Source of the DNA: Polyangiales bacterium
GTDB lineage: Bacteria; Myxococcota_A; Polyangia; Polyangiales; Polyangiaceae
Reading direction: 5' to 3'
NCBI GenBank assembly: GCA_038231275.1
Contig: JBBRLQ010000030.1
Location: forward strand, 1 to 64,000
Length of the DNA: 64,000 nucleotides
The position numbers and the translations under genes were made by a program. This document shows positions 9,868 to 18,394 of this stretch, piece by piece. The notes under the pieces are model-generated. The model did not search any database and was not told the origin of the DNA. It saw only the letters and a list, made by a program, of their open reading frames with translations. Positions within the stretch are counted from its first letter, which is position 1, and each line of letters begins with the position of its first letter.

Positions 9868-11715
9868 TCAATCGTGAACGACGACGCGAGTACCCAGCTT
9901 GTCTTCCGTCGACACCACGCCGTGCCAGCCGTCGGGGAGCTGCGGCTCCGTCCAGCCGAAGAGACGGCGCGCGTCCTCGGGCGACAGGTTCACGCACCCA
10001 TGGCTCTGCGTGTGCCCGAAGTTCGAGTGCCAGAACGCGCCGTGAAGGGCGTAGCTCCCGCTGAAGTACATGATCCAGGGGACGTCCTCGATCGAGTACG
10101 GCCCATCGCTCGCGACGTCCCCATCCATGGTGGCCGCGATGTGCTTCTCGCGGATGCGGAAGCTGCCCTTCGGCGTCGGGTGATCCTTCTCTTTGTCCAG
10201 GAGGTTCCTGCGGCCGCTCGACACGATCGTCGCGTAGACCGGCTTGTCTCCTTCGTAGGCGACCAGCGTCTGCGCGGTGAGGTTCACGTCGACCCACTTT
10301 TCCCCGGGCTTCAGATCGTGCGGCGCAGGGCCGGGCTTGGTGCGCGTGCCCTCGTTCATGCGCATCCACCAGCCCTCGTCGGTCTCCTCGTAGACGTAGC
10401 CGGCGATGTTGGCGGTCTCGCCCGTCAGACGGACGACCGAGAAGCGCGCGACGCCTTCGCCCGCCGTCGCCTTCTTCTTTTCGGCGCCAATCGAATATTT
10501 GTGCGCGTGGGTCCACAGGACGAAGCCGACGCCGGACGGATCCTGCACGGCCTTCCGCGGGACGTCGCCGGCGTCCACCTGCGCGCGCACGCCGGCGTCC
10601 GGATCACGCGGCGCGCGCGTAAGGGGAAGCGGCGCGTCGTCCTTGAGCCAGACGCCGTGGTAGTCGGTCGGGGGCTTCGTGACGTAGACGCGCTCGAACG
10701 GCGCGAGCAAGCCACCGGTGGTCCGCCACCACTTGGTGTTGTTGTAGGATTTCTCCTGATCGAGCGCGAGGTAGAAGCCCTTCACCATGCGGCGAACGAG
10801 CGGCGTTCCGTCCTCGCCGCGCAGATCGTCGAGCGTGACGGTGGGCTTGCCGCCGTCGTACTCGCGCAGGTACCACGGCACGCCGGCGTCGTCGCTCAGG
10901 CCGAACGGATCGGTCGCGCTCGTCAGCGTCGTCGTGCTGCTCGCCGGGATGGTCGCGGCGCCGGCGTCGAGCGCGTCGTCCGCGGTCACGTACGGGTTCG
11001 CGTTGGGATCGTCGACCGTCTTCGGCTTCGGCTTCTTCGTCAGCCAAGGCTCGAGGCGGACGCGGTCCTCGCGCGACGGGACGGTACGGTAGAGCGGCGT
11101 GCCGTTCGTGAGGTTCACGCCGTACTGGTACGGCAGAGGCCCGTTCATGTCGGGCGCGTGCGGCGCGATCTTGATGCGGGGATGATTCATGTCGAGCGAC
11201 GCGTACTTCCCGCAGAGGAAGCCGCCGGAGACGAGCTCGTACCAGCCCTCCTGACAGTTGGGCTTCTTGTGCGGCTCGGGAATAACCGGCACCGTCCCGC
11301 CTTGCCTGATGTATCCAACGACGTCGCTCTTGATCTCGCGCTCTCTCCGCGGGCGCCCGTCTCTCGCTTCGCGTGCCGGCCACTCCATGTCGCTCATGAT
11401 CGGCGTCGTCAGAAACAGCGCTCCGATGCGCGGTCCGTCGTACGGCGCCGCGTCGGTGCCGTGCGCGGTGAGGGGGCTCGCCGCCGCGCCAGAGTCGCTC
11501 GAGGGTGCCCCAACGGTGGGCTCTCCGGACGAGGCGGGAGGCGTCGCCGGCGGCGTGTTGGTCGCGCCGGTGAGCGGGTCGGTGCAGGCCCAGACGGCCG
11601 CGCCCAGCGAAGCGATCCCCAGCGCGGCCAGGACGAACCGCGTTCGCGTCGGGCGACGCGGACCGGCGCCAGAGGCGGGGGCGGGGGCGGAGGCGGGGTG
11701 CTGCGGTCGCTCCAT
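9868..11715 (-). CDS. L,D-transpeptidase (YkuD) lipoprotein
   Basis: VDVNLTAQTLVAYEG..VSSG..TPKGSF..ALHGAFWH..SHGCVNL; lipobox-like AVWAC; start uncertain. Confidence 0.9.
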   Translation of the reverse strand: MERPQHPASAPAPASGAGPRRPTRTRFVLAALGIASLGAAVWACTDPLTGATNTPPATPPASSGEPTVGAPSSDSGAAASPLTAHGTDAAPYDGPRIGALFLTTPIMSDMEWPAREARDGRPRREREIKSDVVGYIRQGGTVPVIPEPHKKPNCQEGWYELVSGGFLCGKYASLDMNHPRIKIAPHAPDMNGPLPYQYGVNLTNGTPLYRTVPSREDRVRLEPWLTKKPKPKTVDDPNANPYVTADDALDAGAATIPASSTTTLTSATDPFGLSDDAGVPWYLREYDGGKPTVTLDDLRGEDGTPLVRRMVKGFYLALDQEKSYNNTKWWRTTGGLLAPFERVYVTKPPTDYHGVWLKDDAPLPLTRAPRDPDAGVRAQVDAGDVPRKAVQDPSGVGFVLWTHAHKYSIGAEKKKATAGEGVARFSVVRLTGETANIAGYVYEETDEGWWMRMNEGTRTKPGPAPHDLKPGEKWVDVNLTAQTLVAYEGDKPVYATIVSSGRRNLLDKEKDHPTPKGSFRIREKHIAATMDGDVASDGPYSIEDVPWIMYFSGSYALHGAFWHSNFGHTQSHGCVNLSPEDARRLFGWTEPQLPDGWHGVVSTEDKLGTRVVVHD

Positions 11716-11990
11716 GCTCGAATGCGCTCTTTCCACGGGTGTCGGCCCGCGTCTACCGTCCATTACCCCTGAAAGGGCGCCGGTTTCCAGTTCTCGTCCT
11801 ACCCGTCCAAGCCTGGCGGGGCTCACCAACGGGCGGATGCTCGCGTGCCGAAGAGGTGGCATACCGATTCTTGCTAGAGCGAGCTCCGTGCCCAAACGAG
11901 TGACCCGAAATCATTACTTAAATTCACCGAGCGCCGCGTCGGGTGTGGGAATGGGCGGGCGCGCGCGTGGCTAGACGGACGCACCCCGTG

Positions 11991-13460
11991 ATGCGTGGGG
12001 CGTCGCGCGTCGCCCCGACCGCACCTCATGCGACACCGCCGGAGGAGCCGAACGAGCCCGACGGGACGGCCAGCGAGCCCGCGCGCGCGAAGACGCGCAA
12101 GACCGGCCCCGAGCGCTTCTGGGACTTGCGTCGCGTCCGGATCGCCCTCGCGATCGCTTCGGTGCTCTCACTCGCCTTCCACTGGTGGGTGGGTCCGTGG
12201 ACGGTGCGCTCGGGGCTGAAGTTCGAGATCCACGACGTCGAGGGGGAGACCGTGATTCCGGTCGACCTCATCGAGGACGAAGCGCCGCCAGCCCCTGCGC
12301 CGGTCGCCCCGCCGCCCGTCACGACGAACGATCCGAACGATCCTGGACCGAACGCGCGCGACGGCGGCCCTCCGCCGAAGAAGGACGCGGGGCCGTTGGA
12401 CGCGTCGCGTGACGTGGAGCTCGCCGACGCGGATCGTGACGGCGCGATCCACGACGCCGAGGCGGACGACGGAAGCGTCGACGACGGCGGCCCCATCGCG
12501 CTCGCCGACGCCGCGGGCGGGGGAGAAGGAGGCGCTCTCGCCCTCGCGGACGGCGGCAACGGCGGCAACGGACCGCGCGATCCGGAGGGCTTCGTCGGCG
12601 ATCTCGGGAAGATCAAGACCGGCGAGAACCTCGTCAACCTCTTCATCAACGTGGAGGTGATCCGCAAGACCCCCGCCGGCGCGCGACTCAGCAAGCTCGT
12701 GCGCGCCGCGCCGCAGTGGGACGACGCGCTCAAGGGGACGACGGTGGATCCGGTGCGTGACGCCGACTGGGTCTACATCTACGGACCTGCGCTGCTCCAC
12801 ACCGAGCAGGACACGATCCTCATTCACTACTCGGTGCCCGACGCCGTCGCCGACGAGGCCATCGACGCGATCCGCCGCCGCAGTCACAACGGCGCGGCGT
12901 ACGACGCCGGCGTGCCGGGCGTGAAGGCTACGCTCGGCCACGCCGATCGCGCGCCGCGCGTATTCTTGCGCGGCAAGACCAAGACCATCGCCGTCGTCCC
13001 GCCCAAAGATGCGACGGCCACCGCGCGCGTGCTCGTGTCCGCGAAGAAGCCGCCGCCGCCGCGGCCCGGCGAAGCGATGCGCCTCACCGTGAAGAACCCG
13101 AGCCGCCCGATCCCGCAGCTCCCGGCGCGCGTCACGGAGATGCGGCTCTGGATCATGCCGCTCGCCGACGGGAGCGCCGACGTCTTCGGCGAGCTCCAGA
13201 ACCCCGACGCGCAGGGGGCGACCGACTCGGAGACCGAGCTGAAGGGCTTCCTCCAGAAGTACCGCGGCAGCATGGAGGGCGCGCTCGCGAACATCGTCTC
13301 GCGCGGTCTCATCAACGCGGTCGAGATCGACTCGAGCGCAACGGTGACGAGGCTGCACGTGCGCGCGACCCCCGAGCAGATCGACGCGATCATCGGCTTC
13401 GTCGCGGCGCAGGCGGGCATCGACGTGTCGACGCCGACGCCCGCGCCCTCGGGCCGCTGA
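11991..13460 (+). CDS. Hypothetical single-TM protein with Pro/Asp-rich linker and large extracytoplasmic domain
   Basis: TM IALAIASVLSLAFHWW, DAG-rich linker, typical codon bias. Confidence 0.7.
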   Translation: MRGASRVAPTAPHATPPEEPNEPDGTASEPARAKTRKTGPERFWDLRRVRIALAIASVLSLAFHWWVGPWTVRSGLKFEIHDVEGETVIPVDLIEDEAPPAPAPVAPPPVTTNDPNDPGPNARDGGPPPKKDAGPLDASRDVELADADRDGAIHDAEADDGSVDDGGPIALADAAGGGEGGALALADGGNGGNGPRDPEGFVGDLGKIKTGENLVNLFINVEVIRKTPAGARLSKLVRAAPQWDDALKGTTVDPVRDADWVYIYGPALLHTEQDTILIHYSVPDAVADEAIDAIRRRSHNGAAYDAGVPGVKATLGHADRAPRVFLRGKTKTIAVVPPKDATATARVLVSAKKPPPPRPGEAMRLTVKNPSRPIPQLPARVTEMRLWIMPLADGSADVFGELQNPDAQGATDSETELKGFLQKYRGSMEGALANIVSRGLINAVEIDSSATVTRLHVRATPEQIDAIIGFVAAQAGIDVSTPTPAPSGR

Positions 13461-13507: not shown

Positions 13508-14269
13508 CTACTTCGTCAGGTGCGTCGTCGCGACGCGTCGCTGCACACCTTGGAACTCGGTGACCAGGACGTCGTGACGAAAGGCCGGATCGACCTGTCC
13601 GGCGTTCTGCGCCTTCACGCCCATCTCCACGTCGCACTCGGGCGCCGTCGCGTCGGCGAGGGGGACGACGCTCATGTCGAGCAGCGCCTTCTCGCTGCGC
13701 ACGCTCACGATCGCGGACTGCTTGCCGTTCTTCAGGCACACGCCGTTCAGCTCGATTTCGAGCGACTCGGTCCCCGAGGCGCCGAGGCCGGGGACGTCGA
13801 TGGCGAGCGTCCCGGTGTGCGAGACGGCAGGGGCGGGCGAGAGCGTCATCGCGAACGGGGCAGGCACCATCACCTGCGATTCGCCGCCGTGGCGACCGTC
13901 CGCACGCACGAAGGAGATCGTCGCCGCGACCGCCAGAGCGGGCTGCGCGAAGTCGGCCTCGTAGTGAATCGCGTTGCCCTCCTTCACTTCGAGGAGACGG
14001 TGCGTCTCGCTGCCGACCGTCGCGGTGAGCGTGTCGGTCGCGGCGAGTTCGAGGAAGGCGCCGCTTTTGCCGAAGAGAGCTGCGTACACGCGAATGTGTC
14101 CGCCGTCGGACTGCGCGCTGAGGGACGGCGCCATGTCGGCCACCTCGTAGGCGGTGGTGGACTCCGCCGGTTTGGTCGGTGTCGTAGTGGTCGTCGTATC
14201 CGGCAAGGTCTTCGAGAAGCAGCCGACGAGGGTGACGAGGGGAAGCAAGGCAAAGAGTGAGGTTCTCAT
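13508..14269 (-). CDS. Hypothetical lipoprotein
   Basis: MRTSLFALLPLVTLVGC lipobox; Thr-rich linker; beta-rich body. Confidence 0.7.
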   Translation of the reverse strand: MRTSLFALLPLVTLVGCFSKTLPDTTTTTTPTKPAESTTAYEVADMAPSLSAQSDGGHIRVYAALFGKSGAFLELAATDTLTATVGSETHRLLEVKEGNAIHYEADFAQPALAVAATISFVRADGRHGGESQVMVPAPFAMTLSPAPAVSHTGTLAIDVPGLGASGTESLEIELNGVCLKNGKQSAIVSVRSEKALLDMSVVPLADATAPECDVEMGVKAQNAGQVDPAFRHDVLVTEFQGVQRRVATTHLTK

Positions 14270-14429
14270 GACCATTGCCTTGAGCAACCGACGTGCCGCG
14301 CTGCAATTCACGGGAGTTATGCGAAAACGCGTTCCGCGCCTCGTCGGACTGTAGCCGCCGCTTCACGTGCCGTTGCCGCCGCACATCACGGATCGGCACG
14401 GATCCAGCCCGTGCTACCGTCCCGACCTC

Positions 14430-14894
14430 ATGAAATTCGCGCTCGCCATCGTCCTATCGATCGTCCCTGGGCTCGCCGTCGGCGGCCTCCTCACCGGCTG
14501 CTCGAAGAAGGATCCGGAGCCCACGTCGTCCTTCAAGCCCGCCGAGGCGCCGCCCGAGCTGCCGGGCCCCGACAAGCTCGAGATCGTCGACGACGTGAAG
14601 GGGACCGGCAAAGAGGCCAAGTCCGGCGACACGGTACGCGTGCACTATACAGGTACCCTGATGAGCGGAAAGAAGTTCGACAGCTCGCGCGACAAAGGCG
14701 AGCCGTTCGAGTTCAAGCTCGGCAGCGGCGGCGTCATCAAGGGTTGGGATCAGGGCGTCCCCGGCATGAAGGTCGGCGGGAAGCGCCGCCTGACGATCCC
14801 GTTCGATCTCGCATACGGTGCGGCGGGGAGCCCGCCGAACATCCCGCCCAAGGCGGCGCTCAAGTTCGACATCGAGCTCGTCGAAGTGAAGTAG
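14430..14894 (+). CDS. FKBP-type peptidyl-prolyl isomerase (lipoprotein)
   Basis: VHYTGTL..FDSSRD..F..G..VIKGWDQG..AYG..IPP..L.FDIEL; lipobox LLTGC. Confidence 0.95.
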   Translation: MKFALAIVLSIVPGLAVGGLLTGCSKKDPEPTSSFKPAEAPPELPGPDKLEIVDDVKGTGKEAKSGDTVRVHYTGTLMSGKKFDSSRDKGEPFEFKLGSGGVIKGWDQGVPGMKVGGKRRLTIPFDLAYGAAGSPPNIPPKAALKFDIELVEVK

Positions 14895-14916: not shown

Positions 14917-16794
14917 CTAGGAGCTCGCGCGCGCGTCGTGGAGGCGGCCTTCGAGCATCCGCTCGAGGGCCTCCATGCGATCGAGTCGGCCCGGGCCGAG
15001 GTGTGTCACGCCGCCGGCGCGCTCGAGGCGCACGAACGCGCGCGATCCTGCCTGTGGGACGAGGGTCGCGCTGCGAATCGCGCTCCACGGGACGGCGCGG
15101 CCCGCGAACGTGACGCCGTGCTCGTCCACCGCGACGTCCAGCGGCATCGTGGCGGCGAGCGCGTACGCGCACAGACCGAGGAGTCCGAGGACGGCGCTCG
15201 AGAACACGACGAACGCGTACGTGATGCGTTGGTGCGTCGCCTGATGCCCGACGCCGAGCGCGAAGAGCAGCGCCGCGCACAGGTGCAGCCCCACCGCCGC
15301 GGCCGCGAACGCGCCGGGCCGCCCCACGCGAAAGAACGCTCTGTACGCCGACGGCGGCGCGTCCGCCTGGTCCGGCCCCACCGCGCCGTGCCGAAGCGCG
15401 CGACGAAGGAGCACGATGAAGAGCGACGCGAGCGCGAGGTTCAGCGCGAGCGCCAAGAGCCCTAGCCCGTCGATCGACAAGAGCGTGTCGAAAGCGCCGT
15501 GCATGAGCGCTGCCCAGCCGAGGAACAGCAGCACGCTCGTCCTCCGCGAGACGAGCTTCTTGCCGAGCGCGTAGCCCCAGATCGCGCCGAAGAAGAGGTG
15601 CGCGGGGATGCTCGTGAACATGCGCGCGGCGATGATCGCGCTGCCCATGCACCCGAACGCGAAGTACTTCACGTTCTCGATGGCCGCGAAGCCGAGGCTC
15701 GACGCGGCGCCGTACACGATGCCGTCGACCGGCTCGTCGAACTCGGGGCGTCGCGCCGCGAGGGTCCACGCGCCCATGAGCTTCGCGCCCTCCTCGCTGA
15801 GACCGACGACGACCGTGAAGACCAGGAGGGCAAGCGGAAACGAGCTCGCGCTCCCGCCGAGCGTCATGACGCTTGGATTCAGGTACGGCGTCGCCGTCAT
15901 CGCCCCCCACTCCAGGAAGCCCGCGGGCACGACGCTGAGCCCTCCCAACGCGAACGTCACGAGCACGAGCCACCACGGCTCCGGGTACGCGCGGTCGAAC
16001 CGGCGCACGAAGAAGAGCCAGGCGAACGAGAGCAGCATCGGCACCACGAAGCACGCGACGGCGAGCGGCCACCGCACCGGCAGCGCGCGCGATCCGGCGC
16101 GCACGAGCGGCGGCAACGTGCCCGTCCTGAGGAGCGTCCGCAACGAGTGCGCGCGGGAGTACGCGGTGACGCCGTCGCCCATCGAGAGGACGAGGGCAGG
16201 GCGGCCCGAAGGCGCGCGCGCCTCGACGAAGAGCTCGCCGATCGGGCGCCGCGAGAGGACCCTGCGCCCGCGCGCGACGACGGTCTGGCGGCCTTGCAGC
16301 GCCTCGATCGCGGCGCGGAGCTTGGGCGCGTCGTGCACGTACAGCACCACATCGCGCTTCTCCGAGGCGGTGTCGCTGGCGGCGCCGAAGTCGACGTAGT
16401 CGCGCAGCTCGATCGCGGGGGTCTTGCCGGCGAGGCCCGCGGGGTCGGCCGGCGTCGGCGCGAACGTCGCGTCGATCGCGTACACGGCGAGCCCGCCGCG
16501 CCACCCGAGGACGTCATCGACGGCGTCCGCGCTGTCGCCGTCGACGGTCACGTGGAGGTGTCCGTCGGCGGCTGGCTCCACGTCGGCGGGCACGTGCGCG
16601 GCCCCAAGCCGCGCTTCGACGGCGCCGCGCGTGGCCGACGGTGGCGTCGCGGCCGCCGCGACCTCCCTTTCCGTCTTCAGGACCTCGTAGTCGAGCTCGA
16701 CGTCATGCGTCCCCGCGAGGTGCGTCCCGTCGCACCCGAGCAGGACGAACGCGGCGAGGAGCAGCACGACGAACGCGGCGGCGGCCCTTCTCAC
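14917..16794 (-). CDS. PrsW-family intramembrane metalloprotease with SecD-P1-like N-terminal domain and PH-like C-terminus
   Basis: EEGAK, GFAAIEN, HLFFG and HGAFD motifs; multiple TMs; N-terminal LLGC lipobox. Confidence 0.85.
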   Translation of the reverse strand: MRRAAAAFVVLLLAAFVLLGCDGTHLAGTHDVELDYEVLKTEREVAAAATPPSATRGAVEARLGAAHVPADVEPAADGHLHVTVDGDSADAVDDVLGWRGGLAVYAIDATFAPTPADPAGLAGKTPAIELRDYVDFGAASDTASEKRDVVLYVHDAPKLRAAIEALQGRQTVVARGRRVLSRRPIGELFVEARAPSGRPALVLSMGDGVTAYSRAHSLRTLLRTGTLPPLVRAGSRALPVRWPLAVACFVVPMLLSFAWLFFVRRFDRAYPEPWWLVLVTFALGGLSVVPAGFLEWGAMTATPYLNPSVMTLGGSASSFPLALLVFTVVVGLSEEGAKLMGAWTLAARRPEFDEPVDGIVYGAASSLGFAAIENVKYFAFGCMGSAIIAARMFTSIPAHLFFGAIWGYALGKKLVSRRTSVLLFLGWAALMHGAFDTLLSIDGLGLLALALNLALASLFIVLLRRALRHGAVGPDQADAPPSAYRAFFRVGRPGAFAAAAVGLHLCAALLFALGVGHQATHQRITYAFVVFSSAVLGLLGLCAYALAATMPLDVAVDEHGVTFAGRAVPWSAIRSATLVPQAGSRAFVRLERAGGVTHLGPGRLDRMEALERMLEGRLHDARASS

Positions 16795-16828: not shown

Positions 16829-17329
16829 TCACTGGTTGTCGCAGGCGCCCGACGAGCACACGTTGAACTGGTTCGGGTCGCAAACCTTGCCGCACGCGCC
16901 GCAGTTGTTGACGTCGCTCGACACGTCCTGGCAGCCGGCGCCTGCGCAGTAGTCGACGAGCGTGCCGACGCACGCGCACGTCCCGGCGGTGCACGTCGCG
17001 CCGACGCCGGTGCAGGCGTTGCCGCATTTGCCGCAGTTGGTGACGTCGGAGCTCGTCGCGACGCATTTTCCGCCGCAGACCTGGTTCGGCGCCGGACAGC
17101 CGCCGTCGCCTCCTTGCGGATCGCGGTACCCGGCATCGACCCGCGGATCGGCCGCGTCGTACGCGAAGCCGCCGTCGCCGAGGAGACTCCCGCCTTCGGC
17201 ACCGCCATCCCCCCCGCCTTGCTGCCCCGATCCTGGCCCGAAGGGTGTGCCGGCTGGTGGATCGTCACTGCACCCCCCCATGATGGGAAGCGCGGCGGCG
17301 AGGACGAGGAGAAGGGACGTTAGGCGCAT
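16829..17329 (-). CDS. Cys-rich lipoprotein with STIG1-like D..NCG.CG..C repeats
   Basis: MRLTSLLLVLAAALPIMGGC; two SSDV.NCG.CG..C repeats. Confidence 0.8.
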   Translation of the reverse strand: MRLTSLLLVLAAALPIMGGCSDDPPAGTPFGPGSGQQGGGDGGAEGGSLLGDGGFAYDAADPRVDAGYRDPQGGDGGCPAPNQVCGGKCVATSSDVTNCGKCGNACTGVGATCTAGTCACVGTLVDYCAGAGCQDVSSDVNNCGACGKVCDPNQFNVCSSGACDNQ

Positions 17330-17419
17330 CGTCAGGGGACTCGTCCAATCGTAACGCAATCGCCATGCCCGAACATTCGCATTCGAACCGGGGCGCGGTT
17401 GCTCTAGGATTCCTGCCAC

Positions 17420-18394
17420 ATGCAGGACGCGCAGATCCTCTATTCAGTCGCGGGCGTCGTCGTCGCGGGGCTAGGCGCCTGGGTCGCGGCGGTGCTCGCG
17501 AAGGCGCCTGTCTTCGTCCCCGCGGTTCCGGCGAAGGAAGAACCGGCTCTCCCGAAGGAGGAAAAGATCGCTCGCGAGGAAGAGAAGATCGCGAGCCTGC
17601 CCAAGGTCGCCGCCGCCGAGGACGACGAGGAGCCGACCGGCCCCTACGCGATGATCCTCGTCGCCGCCGTCGGGCGCACCGATCTCGGCAAACTTCGCAA
17701 GAACAACGAGGACAGCTACGTCATCGACGACGCGCAGCACCTTCTCATCGTCGCCGACGGGATGGGGAGGCACGCGGCGGGCGAGGTCGCGAGCTCACTC
17801 GCGGTGACGGCGATCGACGAGGCGTTCGTCGGCGAGGTCGTGCCCACGAAGGCGCCGCAGCCGGAGGCCCGCCTCGGTCGTCGCGGCAATCGCTTGCGCA
17901 GCGCGGTGTGCGTCGCCAACGAGCGCGTGTACCGCCGCAGCCTCGAGGTCGACGCGTACGCCGGCATGGGGACGACCGTGGTAGCCGCGCACTTCTCGCC
18001 GAACAAGCAAAAGGTGTATCTTGCACACGTCGGCGACAGCCGCTGTTACCGCCTGCGCGCGGGCGACCTCGTGCGTCTCACGCAGGACCACACGCTCGGC
18101 GCCGCCGGCATCACCGGCAAGAACGCCGACGTCCTCGTGCGCGCCGTTGGCCCCGAGCCCACCGTCGACGTCGACGTCGCGGTCGAGTCGCCGCTGCCGG
18201 GCGACGTCTACCTGCTCTGTTCGGACGGGCTCACGCGGATGGTGCCGGAGGCGCAGATCAAGGAGACGCTGAAGACGACGCCCGATCTCGGCGCGGCGTC
18301 CGCCAAGCTCGTCGAGCTCGCCAACGGCGCCGGCGGGCGCGACAACATCACGCTGATCCTCGCGAGCATCACGGCGGCGCCGATGCCTCCGTGA
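17420..18394 (+). CDS. PP2C/PPM Ser/Thr phosphatase with N-terminal TM anchor
   Basis: RKNNEDS, VADGMG, GTT, HVGDSRCY, LCSDGL, GRDNIT. Confidence 0.93.
   Translation: MQDAQILYSVAGVVVAGLGAWVAAVLAKAPVFVPAVPAKEEPALPKEEKIAREEEKIASLPKVAAAEDDEEPTGPYAMILVAAVGRTDLGKLRKNNEDSYVIDDAQHLLIVADGMGRHAAGEVASSLAVTAIDEAFVGEVVPTKAPQPEARLGRRGNRLRSAVCVANERVYRRSLEVDAYAGMGTTVVAAHFSPNKQKVYLAHVGDSRCYRLRAGDLVRLTQDHTLGAAGITGKNADVLVRAVGPEPTVDVDVAVESPLPGDVYLLCSDGLTRMVPEAQIKETLKTTPDLGAASAKLVELANGAGGRDNITLILASITAAPMPP

Follow-up and report, generated by a model that had tools for sequence, protein, structure and literature searches.

A predicted PrsW-family membrane protease with a SecD-P1-like periplasmic domain in the genome of a Polyangiaceae bacterium

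We analyzed a 64,000-nucleotide stretch of DNA from a Polyangiales bacterium of the family Polyangiaceae (contig JBBRLQ010000030.1, C30 among the contigs of the source assembly; hereafter the window), and in particular one of its genes, the product of which appears to join a protease of the PrsW family to a domain resembling the periplasmic P1 domain of SecD. In the predicted structure the order of parts is a signal sequence with a lipobox, a periplasmic domain of about 210 residues (the N-domain), a complete PrsW core, two transmembrane (TM) helices and a cytoplasmic beta domain. The N-domain is very probably homologous to SecD P1, since it can be linked to it through a chain of stand-alone P1 proteins and since its predicted fold matches. 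We give an even chance to the reading that, by analogy with SecDF, the protein is a PrsW-type inner-membrane protease in which the P1-like domain takes hold of extended polypeptide in the periplasm or gates its access. The basis of the finding is predicted structures and comparative genomics. The fusion had been proposed in an earlier note made from the sequence alone, and the strings quoted there are all present in the translation: LLGC at residues 18–21, VEARLGAAHVPADVEPAADGHLHVTV at 58–83, and SRAHSLRTLLRTGTLPPL at 213–230.

When the protein was searched against a public collection, an identical 625-residue entry was found, together with 439 homologs at E ≤ 0.001 (8000 candidates scored). 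Most of the 120 homologs listed span 93–99% of the query; those to which the source gives a name go by PrsW, and JGI names the family MEROPS M82. An alignment of 56 homologs was used for the conservation analyses. The results showed that PF13367 covers residues 272–459 of the window protein (E 1e-32, 113.7 bits with the cut-off at 23.5, profile positions 1–193 of 196) and matches all 56 aligned homologs. The four motifs by which PrsW is defined, EExxK, FxxxE, H, and HxxxD/N (PMC12943098), were found as E334-E335-x-x-K338, F369-x-x-x-E373, H399, and H432-x-x-x-D436. None of these eight residues varies in any of the 56 homologs, and in the whole-protein model they lie near the middle of core helices 3–6. 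The complete PrsW domain with four motifs claimed in the earlier note is thus borne out, and the gene product is predicted to be a PrsW-family protease of the inner membrane (glutamic/metallo type, CPBP-like).

The catalytic domain, the four motifs, and the multi-pass core are common to the window protein and PrsW (YpdC) of Bacillus subtilis, where the motifs read E75E76xxK79, F110xxxE114, H138, and H175xxxD179 (PMC12943098), a spacing close to that in the window protein. The NCBIfam equivalog model of the B. subtilis protein (NF033739, 210 positions) gave 72.4 bits where its cut-off is 225, and because of this shortfall we regard the window protein as a member of the PrsW family and not as an ortholog of the Bacillus enzyme. 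Bacillus PrsW is a bare core of approximately 220 residues, whereas the window protein adds approximately 240 residues on the N-terminal side (signal and P1-like domain) and approximately 155 on the C-terminal side (two TM helices and a beta domain). The source genome has four further PrsW genes, coding for approximately 338–540 residues, and the N-domain was found in none of them. The 540-residue paralog (L005:1276-2898:- on contig C36) bears another N-terminal extension, approximately 250 residues long and helical-looking; since it differs from the N-domain, the PrsW proteins of this genome carry different added domains.

The fold of the N-domain was predicted from residues 22–250 with the 56-sequence alignment, giving a mean predicted local distance difference test score (pLDDT) of 92.1 and a predicted template modelling score (pTM) of 0.85. 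Foldseek comparison of the model with the PDB returned nine matches at E ≤ 0.001, and all of them were SecDF structures (5XAN, 5XAP, 3AQO, which is the isolated P1, 5YHF, 5XAM, and 3AQP; E 5.2e-8 to 2.4e-4, probability 1.00); the next match was an ACT domain at 2e-3. Sequence identity in these alignments was 14–18%, and the superposition included the head, with 187–189 residues aligned. Thus, the structural likeness to SecD P1 that the note had suggested is upheld, as the model ranks SecDF P1 above every other solved fold. As in SecDF P1, the modelled domain consists of a base and an inserted head, is preceded by an N-terminal anchor helix and followed by a TM helix, and is predicted to face the periplasm.

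Beyond this domain the two proteins differ. SecDF has an RND-type TM bundle and a SecF/P4 partner domain, and the window protein has neither; in place of a six-helix bundle of RND type, the TM region after the P1-like domain is the PrsW core. The GLDLxGG-type opening of SecD reads HLAGTxD in the window family, whereas the P1 closing helix and its LP motif are in line with the SecD of the same genome. The lipobox LLGC follows a hydrophobic signal, with the Cys placed as in a lipoprotein; G20 and C21 are kept in at least 90% of the 56 homologs, and 39 of the 56 fit the strict lipobox pattern. The P1-like domain would therefore be held on one side by a lipid anchor or an uncleaved helix and on the other by the PrsW core, which would mirror the TM1-P1-TM2 arrangement of SecD.

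To follow the N-domain apart from the protease, we used an alignment of the N-domain only, comprising the window protein and 25 related loci. Its profile was searched against 1.84 billion representative proteins and gave 120 matches at E ≤ 0.001, mostly members of the 590–690-residue fusion family or fragments of them. The weakest of the matches (E 3e-10 to 8e-4) were proteins of 220–393 residues that aligned across the whole domain. We checked 20 of the 120 matches, 16 short and four long, against Pfam, along with a protein of the source genome described below. SecDF_P1_head was found above its cut-off in 13 of the 16 short proteins (E 1e-11 to 6e-28), two of which also carry SecD_1st weakly; the other three (P0204, P0210, and P0224) had no Pfam match, and the four long proteins carry PrsW. 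Outside the fusion family, no sequences are closer to the N-domain than these short, stand-alone P1 proteins, for which the library-wide HMM search gave E 1.9e-9 to 8e-4. They contain no protease and their SecDF_P1_head is still recognizable, whereas the head of the fusion proteins has diverged past Pfam detection. To judge from their sequences, P1 exists outside SecD.

One such protein is encoded in the source genome itself (L012:1447-2562:-, contig C2, approximately 11137–12252, minus strand). It is a TM-anchored protein of 371 residues with a SecD-P1-like domain alone (SecDF_P1_head, E 1.7e-21), and its gene lies next to one for a Ser/Thr kinase and one for an RHS protein; none of these neighbours encodes a protease. 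Stand-alone P1 proteins were not named in the literature that we found, subscription journals being outside the search.

Profile–profile comparison by hhalign of the N-domain alignment with 14 stand-alone P1 proteins gave a probability of 99.1% (E 5.6e-19, 248 columns). This value is not independent of the search, because 13 of the 14 sequences were chosen from the matches of that same alignment; the first of them, the contig C2 protein, was found independently via Pfam, and neither the E-values of the library-wide search nor the separate Pfam annotation depends on the selection. In the reverse direction, a hidden Markov model (HMM) of the stand-alone family matched 12 fusion proteins. The second step of the chain was made with the SecD of the source genome (contig C28, 685 residues), which was found by SecD_1st and SecDF_P1_head. 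It matches the stand-alone P1 gene of the same genome at 4.1e-41 with 37% identity, and the NCBIfam secD models also match the latter gene, below their cut-offs. Between the GLDLxGG strand and the SecD_1st segment of this SecD lie approximately 130 residues. The P1 regions in the SecD proteins of 29 Myxococcota genomes (L103–L132) are 358–431 residues long.

A short direct likeness was also seen. In a single pairwise BLASTP comparison (E 1e-4), residues 190–228 of the window protein aligned with residues 459–497 of the SecD of the same genome, ANARKLELVLRSGALP, ending in LRSGALP; the aligned part is the P1 end only. Since hhalign also puts both stretches quoted in the earlier note on matching parts of the stand-alone P1 proteins, the echoes of SecD pointed out there are in register.

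The fusion is kept in relatives. A search for related loci yielded 599 candidate stretches, 579 of which encode relatives, and the best 80 were examined. The best 30 (L018–L047) come from metagenome-assembled genomes (MAGs) labelled Myxococcales, Polyangiaceae, Labilithrix, or Sorangium, and 25 of these have a complete N-domain in frame with PrsW. Three of the others are cut at contig ends, and L047 has a different N-terminus. At locus L023:5932-8820 the N-domain HMM matches two frames, which points to a frameshift in this MAG or to an error in its assembly. The remaining 50 loci belong to many phyla and match approximately residues 223–523 only, that is, the PrsW core.

Genomes were surveyed with the N-domain profile at E ≤ 1e-5, and the counts may be low because only 6–12 first-look candidates were scored per genome. 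In a sample of the phylum, seven of 401 genomes matched: the source genome, five of 29 others of the same family, and one of 371 outside the family, a weak match in a 319-residue frame that is probably a stand-alone P1. Within the source family the profile matched 40 of 201 genomes (29 of the 144 of high quality) and 21 of 89 genera, and every match that was not cut by a contig end lay in an open frame of approximately 600 residues or more. The fusion is thus limited to part of one Myxococcota family, made up mostly of uncultured sediment and soil myxobacteria.

The model of the full-length protein (pLDDT 90.5, pTM 0.89) suggests a defined arrangement of the domains. It comprises a helix at 2–19, the P1-like domain at 31–237, seven core helices (242–264, 274–301, 316–348, 355–379, 385–412, 421–440, and 445–468), the two additional TM helices (493–520 and 526–549), strands within 552–603, and a helix at 604–624. 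Basic loops alternate with the modelled helices (RRFDR 265–269, RRPEF 347–351, KKLVSRR 412–418, and RRALRH 464–469), and because of this alternation the N-domain is predicted to be periplasmic and the tail cytoplasmic.

In such an arrangement the P1-like domain would sit over the outward face of the protease. It could bind extended or unfolded periplasmic polypeptide, as proposed for P1 of SecDF, and either present the bound segments to the membrane-embedded active site or gate access to it. Since there is no RND-type, proton-driven TM bundle, any movement of the head would be passive or driven by the substrate. The protein could then act as a self-contained envelope protease that cuts membrane-anchored or freshly exported proteins in their extracytoplasmic part, the outcome being signalling of the site-1 type or quality control, while the cytoplasmic tail may be a regulatory or partner-binding module. 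The earlier note had taken the binding of unfolded translocating polypeptides by P1 as established; this was too strong, as the binding of the emerging chain is described as a proposed step in SecDF function, a working model and not a settled one (PMC6028853).

Several results weigh against a polypeptide-capturing, SecD-related domain. PF21760 (SecD_1st) and PF22599 (SecDF_P1_head) missed the window gene at E ≤ 10, yet they found the SecD and the contig C2 gene of the same genome. The SecD families matched none of the 56 homologs at E ≤ 1, and residues 1–270 of the window protein had no Pfam or NCBIfam match, Pfam being blank in this region in all 56 homologs at the same threshold. Comparison by hhalign of the N-domain alignment was not significant with the SecD of the source genome (E 0.063) and reached a probability of 1.1% with the P1 regions of the 29 Myxococcota SecD proteins; with the stand-alone P1 of the source genome as a single sequence it was likewise not significant (E 0.014). 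A SecD-P1 HMM run over the 80 loci matched no fusion protein. A sequence search of the PDB gave an unrelated best match at E 0.18 with the protein and no match with the family profile. By sequence the link of the N-domain to canonical SecD is therefore an indirect one, although the direct profile comparisons were probably weakened by the spacer of approximately 130 residues in the SecD of this genome. The structural scores were moderate (TM-score 0.38–0.51, root-mean-square deviation 5.6–8 Å against SecDF), which may reflect a differing hinge angle between base and head.

The pattern of conservation and the genomic context point the same way. The invariant or nearly invariant positions in the N-domain alignment are G28, D31, R62, L63, D71, V72, W98, G100, and G176, and further Y212, R214, A215, L222, L227, and P228; with the exception of G176 they lie in elements of the base. 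Of 14 N-domain positions counted as conserved, 13 fall in the base, so the base is favoured over the head. The length of the N-domain ranges from 170 to 296 residues in the 25 loci, with the size of the head varying, and is bimodal in 39 homologs (195–230 and 242–284 residues). The window protein is of the short form (220 residues) and is without approximately 50 profile positions that most relatives have; ten of the 40 positive genomes also give split matches. A split form, in which a P1-like open reading frame (ORF) flanks PrsW, was not found at the 50 PrsW loci of other phyla. No gene for an anti-sigma factor or other candidate substrate is linked to the fusion gene in the window, the neighbours being convergent or divergent.

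Such conservation suits a scaffold or a lid as well as a binding site. As a lid, the P1-like domain would cap or auto-inhibit the periplasmic mouth of PrsW without binding polypeptide, serving as a size filter or plug regulated by the tail or by a partner, a role comparable to that of the PDZ domains of RseP. This would account for a conserved base that includes the helix AYxRAxxxRxLLxxPxLPPL beside the first core TM helix, and for a head that is variable and partly dispensable; the pTM of the whole-protein model also suggests fixed packing on the core. However, no complete member has lost the head, which can still be superposed on that of SecDF P1, and a simple plug would need no two-subdomain hinge architecture. 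We consider such a lid unlikely.

The only functionally characterized PrsW is, according to PMC12943098, the Bacillus enzyme, which is the site-1 protease of the anti-sigma factor RsiW (PMC3482391, PMC12943098). The window protein, with its catalytic motifs intact, could be an analogue of it, that is, a dedicated signalling protease in which the P1-like domain senses a specific envelope signal or recognizes a particular anti-sigma factor or single-pass regulator, with a site-1 and then a site-2 cut. The five PrsW paralogs with differing added domains would be as expected for specialized sensors. Against this, the window gene has no RsiW-like partner nearby, and no sigma or anti-sigma gene, of the extracytoplasmic function (ECF) type or otherwise, was found among the eight neighbouring ORFs of the window, a screen that did not extend to the related loci. 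Those conserved neighbours at the related loci that match genes of the window are housekeeping or envelope genes (FKBP, YkuD, MscS, and 2-oxoglutarate dehydrogenase), and the equivalog score gives no support to orthology with Bacillus PrsW. A dedicated signalling role of this kind is quite unlikely, in our estimate.

It has also to be considered that P1 natively belongs to the Sec machinery (PMC6028853). Through its P1-like domain the protease might dock at the translocon or holotranslocon of the Sec system, where it would clear stalled or mis-translocated chains or process newly exported lipoproteins together with the neighbouring periplasmic FKBP foldase, the gene of which lies tail-to-tail with the fusion gene, within 160 nt of its stop codon, in 19 of 30 loci. 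However, our data do not link P1 itself to contact with SecYEG, FKBP and the fusion, being convergent, do not share a transcript, and synteny extends over the whole neighbourhood. A normal SecD is moreover encoded in the source genome, and of 41 genomes sampled from the phylum 40 have one. We see only a slight chance for docking. That the likeness to P1 arose by convergence or as an artefact of the modelling, the N-domain being an unrelated ferredoxin-like domain with an insertion, is very improbable in view of the ranking of the fold and of the sequence chain through the stand-alone proteins.

To our knowledge, how PrsW-type proteases choose their substrates and sense signals is poorly understood. 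For PrsW, fusion to a domain with a proposed grip on unfolded chains offers a concrete hypothesis of substrate recognition; for SecD, a P1 domain without the proton-driven SecDF motor would let its binding be studied apart from its movement. Tentatively, P1 may be a portable periplasmic module for gripping unfolded chains that these myxobacteria use twice outside the translocon, once alone and once fused to a protease, and this Sec-derived clamp might define a new class of envelope proteases for quality control or signalling that would know their substrates by the unfolded state, perhaps tuned from the cytoplasm by a PH- or PilZ-like tail. We found no report of a PrsW–P1 fusion in a literature search that left out subscription journals and InterPro architecture tables. 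The PrsW fusions known previously, as far as these two sources cover them, have C-terminal toxins (PMC3482391) or PilZ (PMC12943098). PrsW is modular and takes fused partners in the polymorphic-toxin systems too (Zhang et al. 2012, PMC3482391); there, however, the partner is a C-terminal toxin freed by autoproteolysis, as described, whereas in the window protein it is an N-terminal, membrane-tethered P1-like domain. No toxin domain was found by Pfam in the window protein or in its 56 homologs.

The cytoplasmic tail was modelled as two TM helices, six strands, and a C-terminal helix, and P551, L552, D557, G560, T562, G565, W570, and G600 are invariant in it among the 56 homologs. Two TM helices, a beta domain of about seven strands, and a C-terminal helix cap are a feature of bacterial PH (bPH) domains. 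The PH-like character proposed in the earlier note agrees with this predicted topology, whereas neither HMM nor hhalign comparisons gave support to it. The bPH_2 HMM missed the tail at E ≤ 10 and the DUF5381 HMM did not match it either. A search of the PDB with the tail profile returned nothing, there was no structure of the tail in the Atlas, and no tail family appeared in the Pfam scan of the 56 homologs. The neighbours of the tail in a protein language model, at 0.91–0.93, were clusters with bPH_6 (nine matches), PH_40/DUF6560, DUF6585 ('putative PH domain-containing'), and DUF5381, and serve as leads only. A PH-like tail is plausible from the model.

The tail may alternatively be PilZ-like. 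PilZ domains have the motifs RxxxR and D/NxSxxG. The segment RRALRHG, which directly follows the last core helix, has the same G470 in all 56 homologs and the same R464 and R468 in nearly all. It can be read as RxxxR-like, recalling the first motif of PilZ, which binds cyclic di-GMP. Between R464xxxR468 and the beta domain there are 85 residues, including two TM helices, and GVTFAG occupies the place of DxSxxG. PilZ (PF07238) matched 23 places in the source genome, none of them in the fusion gene, and hhalign of the tail with the PilZ domains of the same genome (19 sequences) and with bPH_2 (two sequences) gave nothing significant, whether in global or in local mode. In Leptospira interrogans, LIC_20173 is described as having a PrsW core, two additional TM helices, and, at its C-terminus, a non-canonical PilZ domain (2026, PMC12943098). 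This C-terminal layout is shared by the window protein, where the seven-helix core is likewise followed by two TM helices and then by a small beta domain predicted to be cytoplasmic. The two proteins differ in that the passages on LIC_20173 mention no N-terminal periplasmic domain, and in that the tail of the window protein has no PilZ HMM match and has neighbours of the PH type. Because the layout is the same and R464xxxR468 is conserved, a PilZ-like tail is a possible reading beside the PH-like one.

Features of the fusion gene and its nearest neighbours (positions in the window; residues of the fusion protein)
Feature	Residues	Position	Strand	Basis
Whole PrsW fusion gene, GTG start	625 aa + stop	14917..16794	(-)	ORF list and translation
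Signal/anchor helix with lipobox LLGC	1–21	16732..16794	(-)	Sequence; modelled helix 2–19
SecD-P1-like periplasmic domain (predicted; ferredoxin-like base with inserted head)	28–240	16075..16713	(-)	
PrsW protease core, seven helices, EExxK/FxxxE/H/HxxxD	242–468	15391..16071	(-)	Pfam and model
RRALRHG, conserved, predicted cytoplasmic, right after the last core helix	464–470	15385..15405	(-)	56-homolog alignment
Two additional TM helices	493–549	15148..15318	(-)	Whole-protein model
Small beta domain and C-terminal helix, predicted cytoplasmic, PH-like or PilZ-like	551–625	14920..15144	(-)	Whole-protein model
FKBP-type prolyl isomerase lipoprotein (LTGC lipobox), convergent		14367..14894	(+)	FKBP_C E 4.8e-39
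Cys-rich lipoprotein, Stig1-like/MXAN_6577-like, 34 nt upstream		16829..17419	(-)	Stig1 E 2.5e-8; NF041328 E 3e-14, below cut-off
PP2C phosphatase, N-terminally TM-anchored, divergent		17420..18394	(+)	PP2C_2 E 5.5e-13

Pfam and the ORFs of the window also confirmed the identities given earlier to the three nearest neighbours. In the 30 related loci, the FKBP gene is farther away in four and missing from the flank in seven, one of which has no downstream sequence, while the PP2C gene stands upstream on the opposite strand in ten. The gene for the Cys-rich lipoprotein is present in the two closest loci only. The genes for YkuD, a 505-residue membrane protein, MscS-cNMP, and 2-oxoglutarate dehydrogenase are likewise syntenic. 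The flanks thus represent conserved synteny and not an operon, and their envelope theme gives at most weak support to an envelope function of the fusion.

The source assembly comprises 9.28 Mb in 164 contigs and is 94% complete, and the fusion gene and its surroundings are alike in having approximately 70% G+C. Between the gene for the 505-residue protein and the FKBP gene, 13508–14311 (-) encodes a lipoprotein of 267 residues without a Pfam or NCBIfam match; since tblastn found none in the 30 related loci, it is a lineage-specific insertion in surroundings that are otherwise conserved. The 505-residue protein itself (11943–13460 (+)), for which there was no Pfam or NCBIfam match, spans the membrane once and has a linker rich in Pro and Asp and, at its C-terminus, a domain of approximately 280 residues; in 23 of the 30 related loci its gene keeps synteny with those for FKBP and YkuD.

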